DNA of 64,000 nt from Candidatus Nomurabacteria bacterium (lineage in GTDB: Bacteria; Patescibacteriota; Patescibacteriia; HK-STAS-PATE-3): NCBI GenBank assembly GCA_023898465.1, contig CP060223.1, positions 256,001 through 320,000 of the forward strand, given 5' to 3'. Numbering within the stretch: position 1 is the first letter of the stretch; every line of letters begins with the position of its first letter. Below the pieces are notes generated by a model. It was not told the DNA's origin, made no database searches, and was given only the letters and a program-made list of their open reading frames with translations. A program made the position numbers and the translations under genes. Positions 9,663 to 64,000 of the stretch are shown one piece after another.

Positions 9663-10079
9663 TCAGACGCCTTTGCGGGCGTGGGGATTGTGGCGATAGA
9701 TCGCCATTCCCGGCTTTGCGGTACTGGGAACCTCGATCAGGATATCTCCGCTAGCACCGAAGACGTTTCGCGTCGTTGCCCCGAGGTCAACACGCAGGGT
9801 TGTCAGAGGCGCTGCTCCGAGCGGATCCCCGAGACAAATAATGTCTCGATCATGCAGCGTCACTCCTTGTTTGAGGCTGGCCGTATGCGTTCGTTGGAAC
9901 TGCACACTGCCGAGTACGCCAATCTTGATCCAGTCGGTCTGCGTAGCCGCTTGCGTCGACATAGTACCCCCATTCTTCCAGTGAAAGGCACGCACGGATC
10001 TCATCCTGAGAATGTGCAAATCTTGCCACGGAGTGTAGCGCTGTGGATTTTCTTTGTCAAGCAAAACGGACACACTCAA
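9663..10079 (-). CDS. Hypothetical protein (GC-rich island)
   Basis: The 138-aa ORF starts at a TTG. An internal ATG at 9962 (MSTQAATQTDWIKIG...) has a G-rich Shine-Dalgarno-like sequence and may be the real start. A 9-bp hairpin at 9631-9657 lies downstream. I recognised no family. Confidence 0.4.
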   Translation of the reverse strand: MSVSVLLDKENPQRYTPWQDLHILRMRSVRAFHWKNGGTMSTQAATQTDWIKIGVLGSVQFQRTHTASLKQGVTLHDRDIICLGDPLGAAPLTTLRVDLGATTRNVFGASGDILIEVPSTAKPGMAIYRHNPHARKGV

Positions 10080-10100
10080 GTGAGGTGTCCGTAGTTGGGG

Positions 10101-10898
10101 TTAGTTGACGGAGGCGATCTCTTCATCAGGGATTGCGGCTATCAAGCGTCCGAGCGCCTTTTGCAGCGAAAGATTAGAGCGGGCTAAGCGTTCATCATAT
10201 CGGAAGAAGTGAAAGGGGATAGCAGAGGGGTCGGTCAACGCCATTTGTCCAAGCGCTCCAAGCTGCTGGAATACTGCCCCAAGATCGAGTTCGAGGTCGA
10301 ACAGGAGCTCCCAATCAATGCAAGATCGAAGCGCTTCCCAGGGTAGTGGCTCTTCCATGCAGCATGAGCGCCCGGCCAGCATTCTGACAAAGTGGCAGAG
10401 CCCAGGGTTGAAGAAGCTTTTTCTCCTTTGATCAGTCAGCAAGGTGCTTCTTGGGTCAAAGGGGTACACGGTGTCGTCCTCTCCCTGCATGAGCCATCCC
10501 TTGAGCAGCTCAAGATCAACCACGCTGGTGACCAAATCTTGGGTGGCGAGGGCCTTGCGATCAAAGCTCACGATGTCGCCCCAGGGGATCGGCAGACAGA
10601 TTGAGGCAACAAGTTCCACCCAAGCACCTAGTGTGTCTTGGCGATCCTCTGGGACAACCAAGAGAAAAGAATCAAGAGTTCTGGGAAGTGCCATAGCACC
10701 AAGGGCGGAGAGAAAGTTCCCGGCTTTTTTTCCTACAGCGTCGATGATGAGGCTTCGTATAGGCTCACCATCAGTATCTTCCAAGATGCTTTGAGAATCC
10801 TCAAGACTTGAGCAGACGGTGATGGTGTGGCAGTTGATCCGAGCTGCCAAATGGCGGGCTCGTTTCTGACTACCAGAAAAAACCAAGAGGTGTGCCAT
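10101..10898 (-). CDS. Hypothetical protein with receiver-like (CheY-fold-like) N-terminus
   Basis: 265 aa. The N-terminal pattern LLVFSG...ITVCSS...SLIIDAVG resembles the beta1/beta2/beta3 pattern of REC domains. The C-terminal 150 aa are unrecognised. Divergent from the CHAP lipoprotein gene. Confidence 0.5.
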   Translation of the reverse strand: MAHLLVFSGSQKRARHLAARINCHTITVCSSLEDSQSILEDTDGEPIRSLIIDAVGKKAGNFLSALGAMALPRTLDSFLLVVPEDRQDTLGAWVELVASICLPIPWGDIVSFDRKALATQDLVTSVVDLELLKGWLMQGEDDTVYPFDPRSTLLTDQRRKSFFNPGLCHFVRMLAGRSCCMEEPLPWEALRSCIDWELLFDLELDLGAVFQQLGALGQMALTDPSAIPFHFFRYDERLARSNLSLQKALGRLIAAIPDEEIASVN

Positions 10899-10972
10899 AC
10901 TCAGACCTCCGTTGAGTTATGAAGGTGCTTCCTCCTATAGAGAAGTGTAGACGCATTGCGCATCTTCGACAA

Positions 10973-11391
10973 TACTTGACAACCCACTTCACAGGAGTAC
11001 ACTAAATGCACAATTGGTGGCGATCTCTGCCTGGCACTGACCAGGTTGTCCGGAGACGCCATGTTTTTGTATGCGCGTGTTCTTCCTCCTTGCCGCAGGG
11101 TGTAGCTCGGCTCCGCTCGCTACCCATTTCTCGGCATCGGTCTCTTTGCGATGATCGAAACGAAGAGCGTCTTTTTCTACTCTCCTGCAGGGGCGGTGCG
11201 GGAGCGCGGAATAGTTCCGGGCTTCATTTCCTCACATGAGGAAAGCGGCTTTGTTGCCGTTTTGCACCTTGAAATGCATGGAGGTTCGCCATGACTTGGC
11301 GTTTCCGACTCTTCCTGCTCATGGCCATCGCGTTGACCATGACACCCCTCGCTTTCATGACCGGCTGCCAGGAGCTGCCGACGGAGGGGGA
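10973..11391 (+). repeat. Copy A of a duplicated promoter + leader + lipoprotein signal-peptide module
   Basis: Near-identical to 14570..14894, except for a block of about 94 nt present only in copy A and a few substitutions. It ends 33 codons into the downstream CDS. Confidence 0.9.
10976..11003 (+). promoter_or_regulatory. Sigma70-like promoter (TTGACA-N16-TACACT) of module copy A
   Basis: Consensus -35 hexamer and a near-consensus -10, conserved base for base in copy B (14573..14600). Confidence 0.5.
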
Positions 11392-12028
11392 TTCACAGGA
11401 TCAAGTGGTTGAGAGTCCGGAAGCTCAACCCGGTCCAGCGATTCAGTCTACTGGGCCCGAATGGTATAATCAGGTCGTAAGTGAAGCAAAGTACACATTG
11501 TGCCAGCTTCGAAACGGCACATCGCATGAGGTCTATCAGGGTAAGGCTATGGGTGATTGGCCCTACCCACATCAAGGGGATTGTTGTAACGCCCTTGGTG
11601 TAGTCCGTCAATATATGTACGGTGGTGGCTCTCCAGGACCGCTTGGCGAATGGAATGGCTTCCAGCAAGGCGGTTGGTGCAAGTTCTTTGTCAACTTGGT
11701 GCTCTACCGCTCTAGCTATGGCTACCCGGGCGGACATTTGCTCTTGCCCACTTCTACGTATCGTTACAATAATCCACGCCCGGTTTCCGAAGCACAACCT
11801 GGATGGATCTTGCAGTCAGAAACACTACCTCATACTGCGATCGTAGTAGAACGACTAGGCGGTGGCTTGGATGTAATCGATTCAAACTGGATCGGAACTT
11901 ACAAGCGTCCGGACGGAAGTTATTACTACTCATATGCCATCGCAAGGCATGAAATCACAAATACGGAGTTGGATCGCTACGATTTCATGGCATATCGTCC
12001 GCATGAGGCGTGCGTGCTGCATAACTAG
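11291..12028 (+). CDS. Lipoprotein, CHAP / NlpC-P60 superfamily peptidoglycan amidase/peptidase
   Basis: Signal peptide with lipobox (LAFMTGC). Candidate catalytic Cys in GGWCKFFVNLV and His in LPHTAIVVE...DVIDSNW, the CHAP-like Cys/His/polar arrangement. Shine-Dalgarno GGAGG lies 7 nt upstream. Confidence 0.75.
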   Translation: MTWRFRLFLLMAIALTMTPLAFMTGCQELPTEGDSQDQVVESPEAQPGPAIQSTGPEWYNQVVSEAKYTLCQLRNGTSHEVYQGKAMGDWPYPHQGDCCNALGVVRQYMYGGGSPGPLGEWNGFQQGGWCKFFVNLVLYRSSYGYPGGHLLLPTSTYRYNNPRPVSEAQPGWILQSETLPHTAIVVERLGGGLDVIDSNWIGTYKRPDGSYYYSYAIARHEITNTELDRYDFMAYRPHEACVLHN

Positions 12029-12101
12029 ATAGTGGGGGGTGCTGGAAAGTTTTTCAGTTCCCCCCACCTCCCACAAAGTCAATTATTTACTTCATAAGTA
12101 T

Positions 12102-12617
12102 ATGAAAAAAATCCAAATAGTCTTTCTCTTATTTTCAAGCATTGTTCTTGCGTCGGTGATTTTTTATTCCGGACATGCTATTTCATATAAAAATACAACC
12201 TACGGATATTCTTTTAGTACAATAAAAAAGTCTAATATTAAAGTTCTTGATCCAGCGCTTGTTCAAGTTTCAATTATAGGAGAAGAGGTTATTGAGGAGA
12301 GTCCAATAATAAACATATATGCTATTAAGTTGGAGCAAGATTCTTTGTCTGCAACCCAAGAACTTGAAACGTGGGTAGGGGAAGATCTTAATGGTTTCTC
12401 TGATATTAATATTCAGAGTACAACGACCGAAACAGAAAAAATAATTAACGTTACTTATACGGGAGGGGGGATGTCTGGAAGTATTAAATACGTCGGATTT
12501 TATGTTTTCAATCAGGAAGAAAAAACAATAATTAAGGTAGTAGCTTCTCAGTATAATGATAATATGGAATTGTTTGAGGCCTACAAAAAAATTCTTTCTT
12601 CCTTTCAGTTAATATAA
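12102..12617 (+). CDS. Hypothetical membrane-anchored/exported protein (AT-rich)
   Basis: The ORF track starts at the GTG at 12039. The ATG at 12102 gives MKKIQIVFLLFSSIVLASVIFYSG, a signal anchor. No family recognised. Confidence 0.55.
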   Translation: MKKIQIVFLLFSSIVLASVIFYSGHAISYKNTTYGYSFSTIKKSNIKVLDPALVQVSIIGEEVIEESPIINIYAIKLEQDSLSATQELETWVGEDLNGFSDINIQSTTTETEKIINVTYTGGGMSGSIKYVGFYVFNQEEKTIIKVVASQYNDNMELFEAYKKILSSFQLI

Positions 12618-13255
12618 TGACCACCACTCATCGTCTCCTCATATTACTCATTGTCGTAGTTGCCGCAGGCTTTCTCTATCTTGGATTAAGATCAGATTCC
12701 TCCGATGTAACAACGACGAACAAAACAGTCAACAAAGATTTCCGTGAACTTGAAATGCTCAGTTCAGCTGGTCACAAGGTGTTTCAATCAGAGAATTATG
12801 ATTTCACCTATACGATTGATCATGGTGTTGACTGGAGCGTTAGCGAGGCTGCAGAGCCGACTTTGCTCACCACTTGGTTTTCTTTACCAAATCCAAATAG
12901 TGAAGAGGAAGAAAGAGATGATATTCCGAATGGGTTTAATACCTTTGAAAAAAATAGTTTTCGACTTGATGTATATCCTAACTCAGGTTCAGTAAGTCCA
13001 AATGGAGAAGCGGAGCTAAAAGATTGGTTAAAAAATGATCTTAATAGTGAGTATATTCCTGGAAGCTTTTTAACCTTATCCATTGCAAGAAACCGTTTAT
13101 TCAAAGTAGTTGATTTTCAGGGGATTGATGTGCGAGAGGCGCATTATTATCTATTTGGCTCTGCATTTGTATATGTCTTTTCAAGCGGTGATTTCACTGA
13201 GCAAGAAATGCGCGAGTTTATTAGCGGTTTTACCTACGAAAGAGCGCCTTTATAA
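12617..13255 (+). CDS. Hypothetical membrane-anchored/exported protein (AT-rich)
   Basis: 212 aa with an N-terminal TM helix (LLILLIVVVAAGFLYLGL). The start is a TAATG overlap with the upstream gene. Confidence 0.55.
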   Translation: MTTTHRLLILLIVVVAAGFLYLGLRSDSSDVTTTNKTVNKDFRELEMLSSAGHKVFQSENYDFTYTIDHGVDWSVSEAAEPTLLTTWFSLPNPNSEEEERDDIPNGFNTFEKNSFRLDVYPNSGSVSPNGEAELKDWLKNDLNSEYIPGSFLTLSIARNRLFKVVDFQGIDVREAHYYLFGSAFVYVFSSGDFTEQEMREFISGFTYERAPL

Positions 13256-13462
13256 GCGCTTCATCTCATCTTTATTTCTTTACTTGACGCATCTCAGTAG
13301 TCCGAGCATAATCATTTTTGGGTAGTAACCCACGTTTTGATAAGCAGGAGAAGTACGGTAGATTCGATGGATGCGCCATGCGCACCCCATCTGCGTTGGA
13401 TTGTCACACTGAACCTCGGGTCAGGATAGCACCCTGACAAATCTGGAAAGAAAGGAGGCGTC

Positions 13463-14470
13463 ATGAACCGCCTGTTTGTCGTACTCGCGCTGATCACCAT
13501 CGGGGCTCTGGGTTTTGTTGGCTGCGGCGGTAAGGACGCCGCTACGAAGCCGGAAGAAATCCGCAGTCCAGATCAGATCGTGCAGTCTGAGATTGTCTAT
13601 ACCGTGAACCCAGACTACTCAGGGGTGAATGTTTCGTGGAAAACAAACATCCCGACAGTTGGAAGGGTGTACTATGGTAGGACTCCTCAACCAACTGACT
13701 ACGTCATCGAGGAGGTGAGCACTACTCAACATTTGTTGTGTGCACCTCGACTCAGGGGAGATGCGCTCTTCTACTTCCAAGTGCAATCATCCTTTTCCGA
13801 GGAAGTGATTAGCGCTCGGGAACCGAGCGAAGGCGATACACTTCGCACCCCACGATGGGTTGATTGGTCTCCACCTACCGTAAGATGGGTCGATCCTCGA
13901 GAAGGCGCAATAAAGGGCGGGACGATTGATCTCACTGTTTCGGCAAACGAATACGTTGTCAACGGGGTGGTAGAGGTGAAATTCTTTATCGATGGCAGGG
14001 TCATCGCTGTAGTGACTGAACCCGATGACGGTGATAAGATCTTCGTCGTGCATGACTTCAATACTACCCAGCTCACCGATGGCTTGCATAGCTTTCACGC
14101 GTTGGCAACAGATGTAAACGGTAACAGAGAGTCAAGGGGAATTACGGTCGACATCGACAACTCGAAGCCGGTCATCTATCGATGGGATGCTCCGAGAAAT
14201 CAGCGGGAGATCGGGAATTCTATCAATTTGCGAGTGGTGGCTCAGGACTTTCGTGGTGAACACGTCGATGATGTGTACATCACCCTCGATGGTCAACCAT
14301 TTGCGAGGCTTGAGGTGTGTGAACTGCGAGCTAGCGGCGTAGGAGATGTGTGGTGTAGAGACGTTGATACGTCGACGCTGTCACCCGGTCAGCACTACTT
14401 CGGTGCCGTTTCAGTAGATCATGCTGGCAACGAGTCAGATCCGGTCTACATCGGCGTCATCAAGCAGTAG
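13463..14470 (+). CDS. Lipoprotein with two tandem Ig-like (bacterial Ig / Big-like) domains
   Basis: Signal peptide with lipobox (LGFVGCGG). Two similar modules of about 90 aa (IDLTVSAN..VKFFIDG..TDGLHSFHALATDVNGN and INLRVVAQ..VYITLDG..SPGQHYFGAVSVDHAGN). Shine-Dalgarno AAGGAGG. Confidence 0.6.
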   Translation: MNRLFVVLALITIGALGFVGCGGKDAATKPEEIRSPDQIVQSEIVYTVNPDYSGVNVSWKTNIPTVGRVYYGRTPQPTDYVIEEVSTTQHLLCAPRLRGDALFYFQVQSSFSEEVISAREPSEGDTLRTPRWVDWSPPTVRWVDPREGAIKGGTIDLTVSANEYVVNGVVEVKFFIDGRVIAVVTEPDDGDKIFVVHDFNTTQLTDGLHSFHALATDVNGNRESRGITVDIDNSKPVIYRWDAPRNQREIGNSINLRVVAQDFRGEHVDDVYITLDGQPFARLEVCELRASGVGDVWCRDVDTSTLSPGQHYFGAVSVDHAGNESDPVYIGVIKQ

Positions 14471-14569
14471 CCTTTCCAGTCCGTCAGGAATCCAACAGAG
14501 CCTGGGATCATCGATCTCGGGCTCTTCTCTTTTTGATACGCTCCAGAATGAAAAAGTGAAGTTTACTAT

Positions 14570-14894
14570 TACTTGACAACCCACTTCACAGGAGTACACT
14601 AAATGCACAATTGGTGGCGATCTCTGCCTGGCACTGACCAGGATGTCTGGAGACGCCATGTTTTTGTATAGGCGTATTCCACCCTCCCTTGCCGTGGCGT
14701 TGGGGAGCGCGGAATAGTTCCGGGCTTCATTTCCTCACATGAGGAAAGCGGCTTTGTTGCCGTTTTGCACTTTGAAATGCATGGAGGTTCGCCATGACTT
14801 GGCGTTTCCGACTCTTCCTGCTCATGGCCATCGCGTTGACCATGACACCCCTCGCTTTCATGACCGGCTGTCAGGAGCTGCCGACGGAGGGGGA
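14570..14894 (+). repeat. Copy B of the duplicated promoter + leader + lipoprotein signal-peptide module
   Basis: See copy A. The two copies are offset by 3597 nt at the 5' end. The first 33 codons (MTWRFRLFLLMAIALTMTPLAFMTGCQELPTEG) are identical at protein level. Confidence 0.9.
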
Positions 14895-15492
14895 GACTTC
14901 GGTGATCTCTGATGAGTTGCCGGATGCTTCACCCTCAGCTCAGTCAAGCCCGATGACTTGGCCCTCTTCGATCCAGGATTTCAAACTCCCTTATGATGGG
15001 ATCCGGGATGCATGCGGGGGTCAGATTTGGAAGGTTGTTTGCGGGTACGGATGTGGTTATCATCACAACACAAACTACATGGCCGCCGCGTACCATTCGA
15101 TTGATCTTGTACGGCAGGATGCGCCGACCACTCATAGCGCAGTACTCGCTCCGGCGCGTGGCATCGTTTCGTTTGTCGGATGGAGGAATGGGTACGGTTG
15201 GTGCGTGGAGATGGATCATCGAAACGGCTGGAAGTCGCTTGTGGCCCATCTCGAAACGGATCCTTGGGAATTCGTCCATACCTATGACGACCTGCGGCAG
15301 GGGACTTTCCTGGGCTATGCAGGGAACAGCGGAGCGAGTACGACACCCCACATTCACTTCTCGGTGTGGCGGAACAACGTCACTCATACGCTCGATGGCG
15401 TATCGTTGATCAACCCGCGTCTAAATGGGCGATACAATTCCGGCAATGATTATGTTGCGCCACCGACGGGAAATCCGAACCCGATTCCTTAA
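14794..15492 (+). CDS. Lipoprotein, M23 (LytM/lysostaphin-type) metallopeptidase
   Basis: The N-terminal 33 aa are the same as in the CHAP protein. GNSGASTTPHIHFSV matches the M23 HxH motif. An upstream YHSIDL stands where HxxxD is expected, with spacing one residue short. Confidence 0.8.
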   Translation: MTWRFRLFLLMAIALTMTPLAFMTGCQELPTEGETSVISDELPDASPSAQSSPMTWPSSIQDFKLPYDGIRDACGGQIWKVVCGYGCGYHHNTNYMAAAYHSIDLVRQDAPTTHSAVLAPARGIVSFVGWRNGYGWCVEMDHRNGWKSLVAHLETDPWEFVHTYDDLRQGTFLGYAGNSGASTTPHIHFSVWRNNVTHTLDGVSLINPRLNGRYNSGNDYVAPPTGNPNPIP

Positions 15493-16940: not shown

Positions 16941-17600
16941 ATGTTAGGTTATCTTTTGCTCATTATATCGGTTGTAGAGTTTTTTATTGGCCTGTACCTT
17001 ATTTTTCGCTATGAAAAAAGCCAGGCAACAACATATTACGGTCTCTTTGCAATAAGTGTTGCGATCTATGTTGCCGCGAACGGTTTCGGATTTACCCGAG
17101 CTTCTGATAACGAGTTTATTTTTGAGCAACTTGCTTGGTTTGGCGGCTTACTTAGCGCCCCATTTATCCTTGGCTTCAGTTATAGCTTTCCTAGCCCTAA
17201 AAAATATCCCACTGAGCTATTTCCGTGGGTAATTTGGCCAGTAGTGTTATTTGGCGCAGGAATTTTTACTTCAAATATTTTCCTGGAGAAAACGTATATT
17301 TATTCCTTTGCCGAAGGCTACACTGCGCCAATCGGTGTCTTTTTCTGGTTCGCCATTGCAGTATTTGCGATGTATTGGATATGGGCAATACGAAACCTGC
17401 TGTATACGAGATTGCACACAAGCGGTTTTTATAGGAATTTTCTTACCATTGTGCTCATAGGGCTTTTTTCATCACTGCTTATTTCAGCAATTTTTGATAT
17501 TTACATTCCCTTAGTTTCAGTCACGCGCTACGGATATATTGGAGCATTATTCTCGTCTATTTGGCTGTTTACTACCGCGTATTTAATGGTGAGGAAGTAA
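16941..17600 (+). CDS. Stand-alone 7TM module, paralog 1 (histidine-kinase N-terminal 7TM-like)
   Basis: 219 aa with about 7 hydrophobic helices. Aligns by eye with the first 230 aa or so of the kinase at 23014. Ends ...TTAYLMVRK* where the kinase reads ...ISYAIIRHR and continues. Confidence 0.8.
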   Translation: MLGYLLLIISVVEFFIGLYLIFRYEKSQATTYYGLFAISVAIYVAANGFGFTRASDNEFIFEQLAWFGGLLSAPFILGFSYSFPSPKKYPTELFPWVIWPVVLFGAGIFTSNIFLEKTYIYSFAEGYTAPIGVFFWFAIAVFAMYWIWAIRNLLYTRLHTSGFYRNFLTIVLIGLFSSLLISAIFDIYIPLVSVTRYGYIGALFSSIWLFTTAYLMVRK

Positions 17601-17601
17601 G

Positions 17602-18261
17602 ATGATTGGATATATATTACTCATTATCTCAGTTGTTGAAGTAATACTCGGTTTTTATTTGATTTTTCGATATGTAAAAAGTCCAGCAACTATATATTAC
17701 GGCCTATTCGCGCTAAGTGTAGCACTCTATGTAGGTGCAAACGGGTATGGTTTTAGTCCGTTTTCAGAAAATGATATATGGCTGGAAATAATTGCCTGGA
17801 TTGGCGGGACCTTTACCGCTCCTTTTATTCTTGGCTTCAGTTACTCATTCCCTTATCCACGTAAGTCCAATAAGGAAATACTGTCTTTAGTTCTTAGTCC
17901 ACTCGTTTTTTTCTTCGTCGTAATACTTTTTTCTAATACTTTTGTAGATCATAATAGTGTTATCAGCTTTGATGAAGGATTTCAAAGACCTGTCGGGGAG
18001 TTACACTGGTTTGTATTATCAGTATTCTTTTTCTATTGGGTTTGGTCTTTTATTGAACTAGTAAAGAGTCGAAAAAAATCCGACGGCTTTAATAAGAATT
18101 TTCTTCTTATTTTAATTATAGGCTTAGTTTTTTCTTTGTTGGTTTCGGTATTTACTAACATCATTCATCCACTTGTCGATGTTTCAAAGTTAGGTTATAT
18201 GGGCCCCTTAGCCTCTTCAATCTGGCTATTTATTACTGGGTACTTGATATTGAGGAAGTAA
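17602..18261 (+). CDS. Stand-alone 7TM module, paralog 2
   Basis: 219 aa, collinear with paralog 1 (LLIISVVE..YLIFRY.KS.AT.YYGLFA, APFILGFSYSFP, SSIWLF). Starts 1 nt after the upstream stop. Confidence 0.8.
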   Translation: MIGYILLIISVVEVILGFYLIFRYVKSPATIYYGLFALSVALYVGANGYGFSPFSENDIWLEIIAWIGGTFTAPFILGFSYSFPYPRKSNKEILSLVLSPLVFFFVVILFSNTFVDHNSVISFDEGFQRPVGELHWFVLSVFFFYWVWSFIELVKSRKKSDGFNKNFLLILIIGLVFSLLVSVFTNIIHPLVDVSKLGYMGPLASSIWLFITGYLILRK

Positions 18262-18932
18262 TGAACACCTTTCATTTAGTTTTACTTTTTACACTTTTCT
18301 TTATTCACGCGACTCTCGCAATATGGATGTTGCGTAGATATGTGCAGACGCTATCCATTCGTTATTACTCAGGCTTTTTATTTGGACTAGCACTTATTGC
18401 ACTATTAAATGGTTTATTGCTGTTATTTGGCGGTCAGGAGAGTCAAACAGTCCTTCATAAGATCGGCTTTATCTCAGGCACCTTCACTTTTGTGATGTTC
18501 TTTATGTTTAGTAAGTACTTTCCAATTTCTACTGCAAGACCAAACTCCCGCGACATTCTTTTTTGGGTAATTCCGATTACATTTTTTATTCCATTCATAC
18601 TTTTTAATCAGCAGTTTATCCAGTCTGTGATTATAGAAAATGGAATAAGTAAGCCTACATTTGGAGTCTGGTATACACCATTTATGTTAGTTTTGGCCAC
18701 CTTTGTTCTGGGGGCTATCTATAATCTCATACAGAAATATAAAATAACCACTGAACTTGAAATTAGGAAGAACATTAGAGACATTACGGCAGTATTTTTC
18801 GTATCAGGACTCCTTGGCTTTTTGTTGGACGTTGTGTTGCCAAGGTTTAATGTTTATACGGCACATTACTTTGCCATTGAATCTTCACTTTTTGTTGCGC
18901 TAACTACTGCAATTATTATTGCAAAGAAGTAA
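18261..18932 (+). CDS. Stand-alone 7TM module, paralog 3 (divergent)
   Basis: 223 aa with the same helix layout. TAATG overlap with paralog 2. Ends ...AIIIAKK*. Confidence 0.75.
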   Translation: MNTFHLVLLFTLFFIHATLAIWMLRRYVQTLSIRYYSGFLFGLALIALLNGLLLLFGGQESQTVLHKIGFISGTFTFVMFFMFSKYFPISTARPNSRDILFWVIPITFFIPFILFNQQFIQSVIIENGISKPTFGVWYTPFMLVLATFVLGAIYNLIQKYKITTELEIRKNIRDITAVFFVSGLLGFLLDVVLPRFNVYTAHYFAIESSLFVALTTAIIIAKK

Positions 18933-18933
18933 G

Positions 18934-19605
18934 ATGAAAGAGTTTCTCATCATTGCAAATTATCTGGTTGGAATAGGGGAGTTGATGCTCGCTGGATATT
19001 TTTGGAAAACAAACAGCGGCAGCGCAATTCGGAAGGTGATGGTGTTGTTGGCGTTTTCGACTGGTATGTGGGTCATTTTTACCGGAACCTTTACCTACCG
19101 CTGGATTTTGCTTGATTACTTTGATCTCGGCATATCATTTGTATATTTCTTTGGAATTTTGTTCCTTACCGCCTTACTTCATTTAGTAATTCTCTTTCCT
19201 CACAAGATTTTCCCGTTTGATAGGCTACATACAGTTTTGTTGTATATTCCAACACTCATATTAGGTTTTGCCGCTTTTACTCCAGCGATAATTAAAGAAA
19301 ATATCACTCCGTCGAGCGGGTATACCACAAGTTATCCCGGACCAGCACATTGGATGTTTAATAGCTATCTTTTTCTCATGTATGCAATGGTGATAATCCT
19401 ACTCATTGTTAAGATCAAGCGTTTTGATGGATTTAGCAGAGATAACGCAAAAACTTTGCTTTGGGGTATTATTTTAGGCGGCCTACCCATCGTTTTCTTA
19501 GATTTGGTTTTGACAACTTTGGGCATCTACCCAAATGCTGCCGTTGCCAGCCTTTTCACAGTTGTCTGGCTTGGGTTTACTACTTACATAATTGTACGGA
19601 AATGA
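18934..19605 (+). CDS. Stand-alone 7TM module, paralog 4
   Basis: The ATG at 18934 lies 1 nt after the paralog 3 stop (ORF track start is 18919). Ends ...TTYIIVRK*. Confidence 0.75.
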   Translation: MKEFLIIANYLVGIGELMLAGYFWKTNSGSAIRKVMVLLAFSTGMWVIFTGTFTYRWILLDYFDLGISFVYFFGILFLTALLHLVILFPHKIFPFDRLHTVLLYIPTLILGFAAFTPAIIKENITPSSGYTTSYPGPAHWMFNSYLFLMYAMVIILLIVKIKRFDGFSRDNAKTLLWGIILGGLPIVFLDLVLTTLGIYPNAAVASLFTVVWLGFTTYIIVRK

Positions 19606-26333: not shown

Positions 26334-26531
26334 ATGTCGATTGCGTTTACTCCCACTGAGCTTATTCTCCTCGGAGGATTTCTCGTCTGGATCATGGCCC
26401 AAATCTATGCTCCAATGAAAGGTCGCCGCAAAGCTGTCAGCTTCGGCGCCATCGAGATTGTCTTCCTGCTCGTGGGTCTCGCGGTATTGCTCCTCGGAGC
26501 AATCACCCTTGCACAGAATCCTGCCTTCTAG
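26334..26531 (+). CDS. Small two-TM membrane protein, hypothetical
   Basis: 65 aa from an ATG with GGGAGG 5 nt upstream. Preceded by TTGACA-N16-TATACT (26236-26263). The ORF track start at 26256 is less likely. Confidence 0.5.
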   Translation: MSIAFTPTELILLGGFLVWIMAQIYAPMKGRRKAVSFGAIEIVFLLVGLAVLLLGAITLAQNPAF

Positions 26532-26547
26532 GCGGGATTCTTTTTTT
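26516..26547 (+). terminator. Rho-independent terminator
   Basis: GAATCCTGCC / GGCGGGATTC stem followed by TTTTTTT. Confidence 0.7.
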
Positions 26548-26568: not shown

Positions 26569-27003
26569 ATGAAAAATATTTTTCCAAAAGGGGTCGAGGT
26601 AGTAGCGGGGGTAATAATATTCCATAAAGGGAAGATTCTGATTGCACGCTCACCGAAGTGGTCAGATAAATGGACATTGCCGGGCGGCCATATTGATCCC
26701 GGAGAAACAATTGCAGAGGCGGCTATGCGAGAAGCGGAAGAAGAGACGGGCTTAAAGGTTCATCCACTTGGTTTTGTGAAAGCAGGTGAACTTATTTATT
26801 CAAAGGATTTTCACCGGCCTGCGCATTTTCTCTATTTTGATTATGCTGTTGAAGCAGATGATGGTAATGCAACACTTGATAAGCGCGAATTAACGGAAAT
26901 GCAATGGTGTTCTCCAAAAGAAGCGCTCCAGATGGACTTAGCAGAAAGTTTTTCTGAATCAATCCAAGCTTTTTTAGAAAAGTTTCCGCAATACGCCGGG
27001 TAG
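26569..27003 (+). CDS. NUDIX hydrolase
   Basis: Nudix box GGHIDPGETIAEAAMREAEEETGL. Confidence 0.85.
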   Translation: MKNIFPKGVEVVAGVIIFHKGKILIARSPKWSDKWTLPGGHIDPGETIAEAAMREAEEETGLKVHPLGFVKAGELIYSKDFHRPAHFLYFDYAVEADDGNATLDKRELTEMQWCSPKEALQMDLAESFSESIQAFLEKFPQYAG

Positions 27004-45546: not shown

Positions 45547-45575
45547 TTGACAGGGCTTTTTTGTTATACTATTCT
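45547..45575 (+). promoter_or_regulatory. Putative sigma70-type promoter of the hrcA operon (TTGACA-N17-TATTCT)
   Basis: A consensus -35 sits 17 nt from TATTCT. CIRCE begins 5 nt downstream. Confidence 0.4.
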
Positions 45576-45579
45576 TGTT

Positions 45580-45606
45580 TTAGCACTCAAATATTGAGAG
45601 TGCTAA
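45580..45606 (+). promoter_or_regulatory. CIRCE operator (HrcA binding site)
   Basis: A perfect TTAGCACTC-N9-GAGTGCTAA inverted repeat lies 10 nt upstream of the hrcA start. Confidence 0.9.
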
Positions 45607-45615
45607 TTCAAGCCC

Positions 45616-53081: not shown

Positions 53082-53199
53082 CTTCTCGACGCGCATAGTC
53101 CACAACGGCCTAGTATTGCACTGGGCCGTTTTCTTTTACGCGTTCATTGCAGCAGATTCGCGATTGTGGTATAATGCAAATAGATAAACACATACACAC

Positions 53200-63850: not shown

Positions 63851-64000
63851 TATTGACGAAACCATTTTAAGTGATAAAATACTTGCGTAATAAGCCGTCG
63901 CATATAAAGCGCGACGGCGCACAAAAAAGAAATATTCGCTCTCTTACAAAGTTCTCAAAACATTTATTACAAAATCCGCGCCGTCGCAATGTGAGCGCCG

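Follow-up and report, generated by a model that had tools for sequence, protein, structure and literature searches.

The window analysed here (the whole 64-kb stretch of DNA) comes from a metagenome-assembled genome of Candidatus Nomurabacteria, which belongs to the candidate phyla radiation (CPR)/Patescibacteria. It contains two genes for putative peptidoglycan hydrolases whose transcripts are predicted to begin with the same hairpin, and this hairpin is the subject of our analysis. Gene 1 (11291-12028, plus strand) encodes a lipoprotein of 245 amino acids that has no hit in Pfam and has about 35 homologues in Patescibacteria; judged by eye, its Cys...His motif resembles CHAP or NlpC/P60. Gene 2 (14794-15492, plus strand) encodes a lipoprotein of 232 amino acids with a Peptidase_M23 domain (Pfam). 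Direct repeats (D1/D2) and pairwise alignment reveal that the two genes have in common a duplicated 5' module of promoter, leader, and signal peptide. Copy 1 (10973-11391, plus strand) comprises the promoter, the leader, and the first 34 codons of gene 1 (the lipoprotein signal peptide); copy 2 (14570-14894, plus strand) has a shorter leader between its promoter and the first 34 codons of the M23 gene. The identity begins 3 nt upstream of the -35 element and extends to codon 34, where the signal peptide ends, and past this codon the two proteins are unrelated. The upstream block of the module (10973-11082 versus 14570-14679) is 95% identical and the downstream block (11200-11391 versus 14703-14894) is 99% identical. 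About 93 nt in the middle of the copy 1 leader (at about 11083-11199) have no counterpart in copy 2, and the leader before the hydrolase start codon is 187 or 281 nt long.

The promoter of copy 1 is sigma-70-like (TTGACA-16-TACACT; 10976-11003, plus strand; a 10/12 match), with the -10 region GGAGTACACT and a predicted start at about 11010. The promoter of copy 2 (14573-14600, plus strand) is identical, with a predicted start at about 14607. In each copy, this is the only sigma-70-like promoter, and the hairpin lies between it and the hydrolase start codon. No second promoter-like site (at least 9/12) was found between the hairpin and either start codon. Because there is no other promoter downstream of the hairpin, both genes must be transcribed through it.

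The hairpin occupies 11017-11062 in copy 1 and, by folding, 14614-14659 in copy 2 (both on the plus strand). A first-pass annotation of the window had placed it there, with a U-run after each copy, and had described about 13 bp with one bulge. The bulge is real (A11023), but the stem is longer (16-17 bp) and has a 5-nt internal loop as well (11047-11051). The 5' arm is GGUGGCG (11016-11022 and 14613-14619, plus strand). The basal pairs are GUGGCG/CGCCAU (11017-11022 with 11057-11062), followed by the bulged A; the second helix is UCUCU/GGAGA (11024-11028 with 11052-11056), with the internal loop on its 3' side; and the apical part is (G)CCUGG/CCAGG(U), closed by the loop CACUGA (11035-11040). 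The copies differ at 11046 (T/A) and 11051 (C/T), which are at the edges of the internal loop, just as the annotation had said, and in each copy's minimum free energy (MFE) structure one of the two substitutions supplies a G-U partner for G11029. Two of its distances need revision. Since the -10 hexamer ends at 11003 and the start is predicted at about 11010, the stem begins at about +8, with about 7 nt of RNA before it, rather than about 15 nt past the start; and the length expected of a terminated RNA is about 55-62 nt rather than about 70 nt.

The U-rich tail that follows the stem (11063-11072 in copy 1 and, from the sequence, 14660-14669 in copy 2, plus strand) reads GUUUUUGUAU on the assumption that the stem is closed by the weak U-A and G-U pairs, or AUGUUUUUGUAU if it stops at CGCC. 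Seven of the ten tail positions are U, and UUGU (11067-11070) can pair with ACAA (11010-11013). With a stable stem and a U-rich tail, the element does have the shape of an intrinsic terminator, as first noticed. In 71-nt windows, the folding energy is -28.3 kcal/mol for copy 1 (z = -3.2) and -25.3 kcal/mol for copy 2 (z = -2.4), while the minus strand of the window hairpin is weaker (-23.1 kcal/mol). The 46-nt stem-loop alone gives -23.5 and -21.2 kcal/mol for the two copies. We also folded the sequence upstream of every run of at least four T's on both strands of the window (n = 954), and the two copies were first and third in stability among the adjoining hairpins. (The generic terminator finder gave many false positives within genes and was employed for ranking only.) Among the 14 strong promoter-like sites of the window, the +1 to +65 regions of the two copies are by far the most structured. 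Rfam 15 was run against both leaders, the window as a whole, and ten related loci, and additionally against 10700-15000 at E ≤ 10. There was no relevant match, including to the ydaO (cyclic di-AMP, or c-di-AMP) riboswitch, even at E ≤ 10 in 10700-15000, and nothing relevant in the relatives; the only matches at gathering score in the window were two tRNAs. The failure to match the leader to ydaO in the first pass thus holds up in the Rfam scan.

Because the two copies are parts of a duplicated module, their near-identity says little. With just two copies and 95-99% identity across the module, the differences between them have no statistical weight and are silent on selection. We therefore turn to DNA from relatives, which was fetched around homologues of both proteins; the best of these homologues are only about 50-58% identical. 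Three loci of other Patescibacteria have a homologous hairpin at the head of a homologous hydrolase locus, with adjacent proteins that are 52-54% identical. In L053, the hairpin (740-789) is upstream of a homologue of gene 1 (54% identity), and the arrangement is TTGACT-16-TACGAT, 10 nt, GGTGGCGATCCTTGTCCCCGGGCTTGTCTCGGGGAACTCCAGGCGTCACT, and then TATTTGTTATAT. In L055, the hairpin (about 1251-1296) is also upstream of a gene 1 homologue, in the arrangement TTGACG-16-TACGCT, about 30 nt, and AGCAAACAACGGTGGCGCACCCTGCGTTGCCGTTTGTTTGCTAT. In L001, the hairpin (25-55) is at the head of an operon (TACACT, 12 nt, GGTGGCGAAGTGCTCATTTGAGCGCGCCACC, and then TGTTTTGTATCC), and its spacing from the -10 element to the arm equals that of the window. 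This operon contains a gene for a protein of 174 amino acids, two M23 genes, and further genes, and is syntenic with the window.

The four lineages (the window, L053, L055, and L001) make up our conservation sample. All of them have the 5' arm GGUGGCG without change, as well as the partner arm, an apical helix, the tail, the promoter context, and a hydrolase locus. They also have in common the -10 context GGAGTACnnT (with the variant GGTATACACT in L001), an A-rich flank, and a UUUGU-type (UUUUGUAU-like) tail, which is UGUUUUGUAU in L001, UAUUUGUUAUAU in L053, and UUUGUUUGCUAU in L055. The true homologues of the hairpin came from the gene 1 family and from the head of the L001 operon; in the leaders of M23 homologues (L001-L017 and L031-L039), we found no sequence homologue of the hairpin directly upstream of M23, but only hairpins of a second type (described below).

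The partner arm varies (CGCCAU, CGCCACC, CGUCACU, or CGUUGCC), but all of the differences are transitions, from G-C to G-U or from U-A to U-G, that keep the pairing. Five of the seven basal pairs vary, solely on the 3' side. Across the basal helix, 94% of the cells are paired, as compared to 31-74% if the partner is slid by 1-3 columns. RNAalifold recovered the basal helix plus 3 more pairs, two of which have two-sided compensation. Between lineages, the apical helices have neither sequence nor length in common, yet all of them fold (window, UCUCU/GGAGA plus GCCUGG/CCAGG; L053, CCU/AGG plus UCCCCGGG/CUCGGGGA; L001, GUGCUC/GAGCGC; L055, GCGCA/UGCGU). The first-pass annotation had staked its proposal on conservation of the helix in homologous loci, and in L053, L055, and L001 it is conserved, with pair-preserving changes. 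Furthermore, folding is stronger for the plus strand than for the minus strand in every lineage (-28.3/-23.1, -26.3/-16.8, -31.5/-26.0, and -24.8/-21.4 kcal/mol; a gap of up to 9.5 kcal/mol), which fits an RNA that is read from the plus strand and not a DNA palindrome.

We built a covariance model (R1) from the five hairpin sequences and searched 175 kb of the window plus relatives. R1 recovered just its five sequences (the window copies score 84-87 bits by construction) and one weak match in L051 (2157-2226; E = 0.12; GAUGACG...CGUCAU plus U7), which we did not count because it folds poorly (z = -1.2). That R1 finds only these five implies that the hairpin is not a generic terminator or a dispersed repeat. 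The comparison suggests instead that some Patescibacteria have a conserved leader motif, not described before and absent from Rfam, of which the hairpin is an instance. As aligned, the putative motif runs from an A-rich 5' flank through GGUGGCG, a variable apical stem-loop, and the arm CGYYRYY to a UUUUGUAU-like tail, behind TTGAC-N15-GGAGTACnnT.

Some relatives have a second type of leader hairpin, which consists of AGAAAGAGACGGGC, an apical insert of variable length, and CUCUUUUU(G)UUU. We found it in L003 (1509-1550), L012 (806-845 and 2351-2385), L013 (733-805 and 2360-2432), L016 (2424-2462, 3921-3958, and 5541-5600), and L052 (2332-2372). It usually lies 6-7 nt past a TTGACN-16-TAnnnT promoter, before M23, gene 1-like, or other genes, and its 3' arms vary between copies with the complementarity kept. 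The second type is like the window hairpin in its place (about +1 to +50), in the classes of genes that it precedes (M23 and gene 1 homologues), in its variable apical insert, and in its U-rich tail; and like the window module, it has been copied between adjacent genes. It differs in the sequence of its arms, and R1 does not match it; nor does it match Rfam. The 5' arm of the second type, AGAGACGGGC, was not found in either window leader. In the window, GAGACGGGC is present only at 26745, within a coding region, and the shorter GACGGGC is present at five sites, all outside the leaders. Further hairpins with the shape of a terminator lie just behind promoters in L006 and L050. In L016, a perfect 10-bp stem plus U7 lies between the sole recognisable promoter and the start codon of M23, so the M23 gene must be read through a terminator-like element there as well.

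Near-identical modules of promoter, leader, and N-terminal region in adjacent, unrelated genes are also present in L012 (858-1025 and 2400-2567), L013 (681-817 and 2308-2444), and L016 (2414-2505 and 3911-4001). Copying of leader-signal-peptide modules between neighbouring genes for exported proteins thus appears to recur in this group.

Our preferred reading, to which we give slightly less than an even chance, is that the hairpin is a conserved leader attenuator, that is, a predicted promoter-proximal intrinsic terminator. What is conserved is the stem and the U-rich tail, close behind the promoter, and not the AUG in the 3' arm or the complementarity to the ribosome-binding site (RBS). As a stem and a U-rich tail are what a terminator needs, premature termination is the most likely function. 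RNA polymerase would start near 11010 or 14607, and after about 55-60 nt the nascent RNA would fold into the hairpin with the U-rich stretch in the hybrid. A fraction of the polymerases would then terminate and release an RNA of about 55-62 nt, and only read-through transcripts would carry the structured leader (187 or 281 nt) and the hydrolase gene. Because just 7 nt or so precede the stem, there can be no riboswitch, aptamer, or leader-peptide antiterminator upstream of it, which implies that relief would come from a factor acting in trans or from leakiness. Read-through might be constitutive (a fixed attenuator behind a strong promoter), or it might be helped by a trans-acting factor, which could recognise the invariant 5' arm and its flank or could modify the polymerase at the conserved promoter. 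An attenuator of the trp/his type, with a leader peptide, does not fit, as the only AUG with a Shine-Dalgarno (SD) sequence is inside the 3' arm, and the segment that could pair with this arm instead comes after the U-run. We searched the literature on CPR leaders, terminators, and hydrolase attenuation and found nothing specific.

Other accounts of the hairpin were considered and rejected. It is not the terminator of an upstream gene, because the neighbour of copy 1 is divergent and the neighbour of copy 2 has its own terminator (14497-14525). A plus-strand open reading frame (ORF) of 77 amino acids across the hairpin (11006-11239) is not kept in copy 2, and two ORFs on the minus strand (10901-11062 and 14435-14659), which have no SD sequence, are no longer alike beyond the module, so we do not consider these to be coding.

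Several observations weigh against an attenuator. The stem takes up 46 nt and is interrupted by a bulge and an internal loop of 5 nt, and the U5 run comes after a G or AUG, whereas the canonical terminators of the window (14497-14525, 26516-26540, 53104-53130, and, on the minus strand, 10067-10091) are perfect stems of 10-13 bp with loops of 3-5 nt and U5-7 directly after. Given the interrupted stem and the G or AUG before the U-run, the efficiency of termination may be low. In L055, the stem starts about 15 nt past the predicted start and the U-rich stretch is mostly paired with the A-rich 5' flank. A plain terminator does not need an invariant 5' arm, which hints at another or an additional role for this arm. 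Also, because the 5' arm is invariant, the changes in the basal helix are one-sided, and all of them are transitions that G/U-rich arms tolerate; a shuffle control for the pairing of the basal helix was uninformative. Finally, the comparison covers four lineages only, and the promoter, the transcription start, and the RNA ends are predictions.

Systems of this kind are known from other bacteria and phages. In the greA leader of Escherichia coli, an intrinsic terminator stops two-thirds of the transcripts as GraL RNAs of 50-60 nt (PMC2836576). As in the window, a stem and a U-rich tract (AU7GCU2 in greA and AUGU5GUAU in the window) come within about 50-60 nt of a strong promoter, the stem has been conserved in evolution, and no sensor lies upstream of it. 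The organism, the class of gene, and the sequence are different, and the window stem is longer and interrupted, with termination that is predicted only. In the PR'-tR' unit of lambdoid phages, the terminator is overcome by Q antitermination, and the short by-product, the 6S/StxS RNA, pairs with the downstream mRNA (PMC7547250). The likeness is that a constitutive promoter is terminated just downstream, that lysis or toxin genes need a factor that modifies the polymerase at the promoter, and that the short by-product is able to base-pair with the mRNA that lies downstream. In contrast to the window, which has chromosomal genes for lipoprotein hydrolases and a terminator at about +60, PR'-tR' belongs to a phage late operon and has its terminator at about +200, and no Q-like gene or Q-binding element was identified in the window. 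A third comparison is to riboswitches, as c-di-AMP (ydaO/kimA) and other riboswitches occur upstream of cell-wall hydrolase genes. Their leaders are like those of the window in being long and structured, before peptidoglycan hydrolase genes, with a terminator-like expression platform; but the window has no Rfam match and no room for an aptamer upstream of the stem, and its variable apical part implies that there is no conserved ligand pocket.

The main rival to the attenuator is a stem-loop that protects the 5' end, in which pairing of the end of the mRNA (ACAA with UUGU) would shield it from 5'-end-dependent RNases and no termination would take place. We consider this unlikely. In E. coli and Bacillus subtilis, 5' stem-loops with fewer than about 4 unpaired nt at the 5' end stabilise mRNAs, as in the leaders of E. 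coli ompA and B. subtilis aprE and ermC. Like these, the window hairpin would form the very 5' end of the mRNA and involve its first nucleotides in pairing: the predicted +1 to +4 nucleotides pair with the tail in the window, the A-rich flank pairs with the tail in L053 too, and AGAAAGAG at about +1 pairs with CUCUUUUU in relatives with the second type of hairpin. However, the stem is within about 0-4 nt of the 5' end only for the predicted starts of the window and of L053; in L055, about 15 unpaired nt precede the structure, so the distance to the predicted 5' end varies among the homologues. The analogous hairpin of L016 and L012b is either at a distance of 70 nt from the promoter or behind a gene. 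Nor does a stabiliser require that its arm sequence or a U-rich tail be conserved, and the ompA, aprE, and ermC elements do without a U-run or a conserved sequence. The start site, on which this explanation turns, is predicted only.

A translational switch is less probable still, and we give it perhaps one chance in eight or so. The 5' arm would be an anti-RBS that pairs either with the 3' arm, which leaves the RBS free, or with the RBS and the start codon, which blocks them; in a variant, translation may be coupled to a short upstream ORF (uORF) from the AUG in the 3' arm (11061 or 14658). The 3' arm of the window hairpin looks like the gene's own ribosome-binding region (GGAGACGCCAUG..UUG versus GGAGGUUCGCCAUGACUUG), and because of this resemblance there is strong complementarity between the 5' arm and the real RBS plus start codon. 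The duplex between the 5' arm and the RBS, at -25.8 kcal/mol, is the best site in the leader and was reached by 4 of 500 shuffles and by 0.17% of random segments of the window; with a fixed definition, it is -23.9 kcal/mol (0.8% of background). The MFE and centroid structures of both full leaders include the long-range helix, even though their spacers differ by 93 nt. The full-leader folds also predict an alternative hairpin (11052-11082, plus strand) in which the 3' arm GGAGACGCCAUG pairs with UAUGCGCGUGUUC downstream, with the U-run in the loop, and this is retained in the folds of copy 2 (14649-14681) despite 5 substitutions.

But the anti-RBS segment was picked after the fold had been seen, and the long-range pairs drop below 5% probability once 30 nt of coding sequence is added. 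The ensemble of the leader is degenerate, with alternative full-leader folds within 2-4 kcal/mol of each other, and thermodynamics cannot choose among them. In L053, L055, and L001, the arm-RBS duplex is -10 to -11 kcal/mol, which is at 36-55% of background, around its median. (Scans of the relatives' leaders for duplexes with the RBS give a best-of-many minimum, which is biased, and we do not take them as support.) As for the uORF, the AUG in the window opens an ORF of 14 or 19 codons, but the peptides diverge past residue 4, with the frame shifted between the copies; there is no AUG in the 3' arm of L053 or L001, and the only AUG there in L055 is downstream of the tail. The anti-RBS and the uORF are therefore possibilities that are specific to the window, and not the core function.

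It is about as improbable, or slightly more so, that the short terminated RNA (about 55-60 nt) is itself the product, as a cis-encoded small RNA that acts on the hydrolase mRNAs or on other targets. The promoter, the hairpin, and the tail are conserved as a unit, the arm is complementary to an RBS that both genes share, and GraL and StxS are precedents. Within the short RNA, however, the complementary arm would be locked in its own stem, and its complementarity to the RBS is not conserved in the relatives; moreover, the downstream genes have no promoter of their own, so read-through would be needed anyway. Least probable of all is an element that acts as DNA, either a repressor operator just past the start site or a functionless passenger of the module duplication: although the inverted repeat covers +8 to +53 of the promoter, its half-sites GGTGGCG/CGCCACC are perfect in L001, and duplication is a trivial cause for the near-identity of the window copies, the spacing of the arms varies too widely for a dimeric operator (16-17 nt in L001; 34-36 nt in the window and L053; 7 nt by MFE or 36 nt in the MAFFT register in L055), the C-to-U and A-to-G drift of the 3' arm keeps the RNA pairs while it breaks the DNA palindrome, folding is much better on the plus strand than on the minus strand, and conservation at about 50% protein identity speaks against a lack of function.

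The rest of the leader has other features. Both copies have a block at the start codon (11200-11290, plus strand, in copy 1 and 14703-14793 in copy 2) with three small hairpins, UUGCACCUUGAAA, and the SD sequence GGAGG (11280-11284). This block is partly homologous in L001 (2005-2075), which has a GGGAG..CGGAA..UCCGG hairpin and TTGCACCTTGAAA / UUGCACCUUGAAA, and it may be a second conserved element of the leader. L017 and L014 have GCACCTTGTCAACC or GAACCTTGTCAACC 40-60 nt upstream of the M23 start. The second, weak hairpin with a U-run that had been pointed out about 35 nt before the start codon (GCGGC-uuuguu-GCCGU-UUUG, 11245-11264) is indeed present in both copies and ends 30 nt before the ATG; it was not found in the homologous leader block of L001. 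The insert in copy 1 (11083-11199) has an imperfect direct repeat on either side (CCTCCTTGCCGCAGGGTG, 11085-11102; CTCTCCTGCAGGGGCGGTG, 11180-11198), and inside it is a further weak hairpin (about 11114-11169) followed by the U-run TCTTTTTCT.

Two short words recur in the leaders and promoters of the relatives. (C)GTTCTTT is found in nearly all leaders, 10-60 nt upstream of the SD sequence (window 11073-11085; L003 1619; L012 2378; L016 2453 and 3949; L050 388; L051 2405; L052 2443; L053 849; L054 2328). It is usually the 3' end of a small stem plus a U-rich tail, and in L050, L051, and L054 a short ORF with a strong SD sequence comes after it. We rejected GTTCTTT as a -35 element because no -10 element follows it. 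The words GCCGTCGC/GCGACGGC recur just upstream of the -35 element of the relatives' hydrolase promoters and are often palindromic or repeated; GTGGATAA often follows them, 7-8 nt before the -35 element. These sites are at 63890-64000 in the window and at L003 1437-1470, L006 2790-2815, L013 660-680, L014 2208-2320, L016 2285-2320, L017 190-235, L051 2255-2330, and L055 1105-1185. At the end of the window, the words sit behind a TTGACG-16-TAAAAT promoter, and neither module has them. They look like a transcription-factor site or a hairpin repeat.

As for the surroundings of the modules, the region between them (12039-13255) has two ORFs of 192 and 212 amino acids with no Pfam hit, whose proteins are rich in Lys, Ile, and Asn. 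These ORFs appear to be more A+T-rich than their neighbours and may be a mosaic or acquired segment. After the second module are four tandem ORFs of about 220 amino acids each (16941-19605), the first of which matches HisKA_7TM; the first three junctions between them carry a common repeated word (repeat families D3 and D4). The pairing of a hydrolase with a seven-transmembrane (7TM) protein is also seen in L001 and L053. Elsewhere in the window (45547-45610), a strong promoter (TTGACA-17-TATTCT) has a perfect 7-bp hairpin, AGCACUC-N9-GAGUGCU, at its predicted +1. This hairpin has no U-run, lies 34 nt upstream of an ORF, and could be a 5' stem-loop or an operator.

CPR/Patescibacteria have tiny genomes with few regulators and are largely uncultured, and to our knowledge almost nothing is known about how they regulate their genes and little about their transcription. 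Here, the mRNAs for secreted peptidoglycan hydrolases (M23 and a CHAP-like family) are predicted to begin with a conserved RNA element that is absent from Rfam. A cell that makes such enzymes is endangered by them, and they may matter in attack on a host cell. The element is a small and testable handle, and it can seed a search of CPR genomes with covariance models. The copying of modules between adjacent hydrolase genes, in the window and in three relatives, suggests a simple route to common control of exported enzymes. A bolder proposal, which we regard as unlikely, is that the GGUGGCG hairpin and its U-tail define an undescribed family of cis-regulatory RNAs in Patescibacteria that holds hydrolase operons off, through termination close to the promoter, until a dedicated factor permits read-through, and that the abundant terminated RNA of about 60 nt may also pair with the RBS shared by both hydrolase mRNAs. 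Such a factor could bind the invariant 5' arm or, by analogy with phage Q, could load at the GGAGTAC promoter. If this is true, then the lytic enzymes of an episymbiont, perhaps for its own wall or for that of its host, would be gated at two levels by one 60-nt element.

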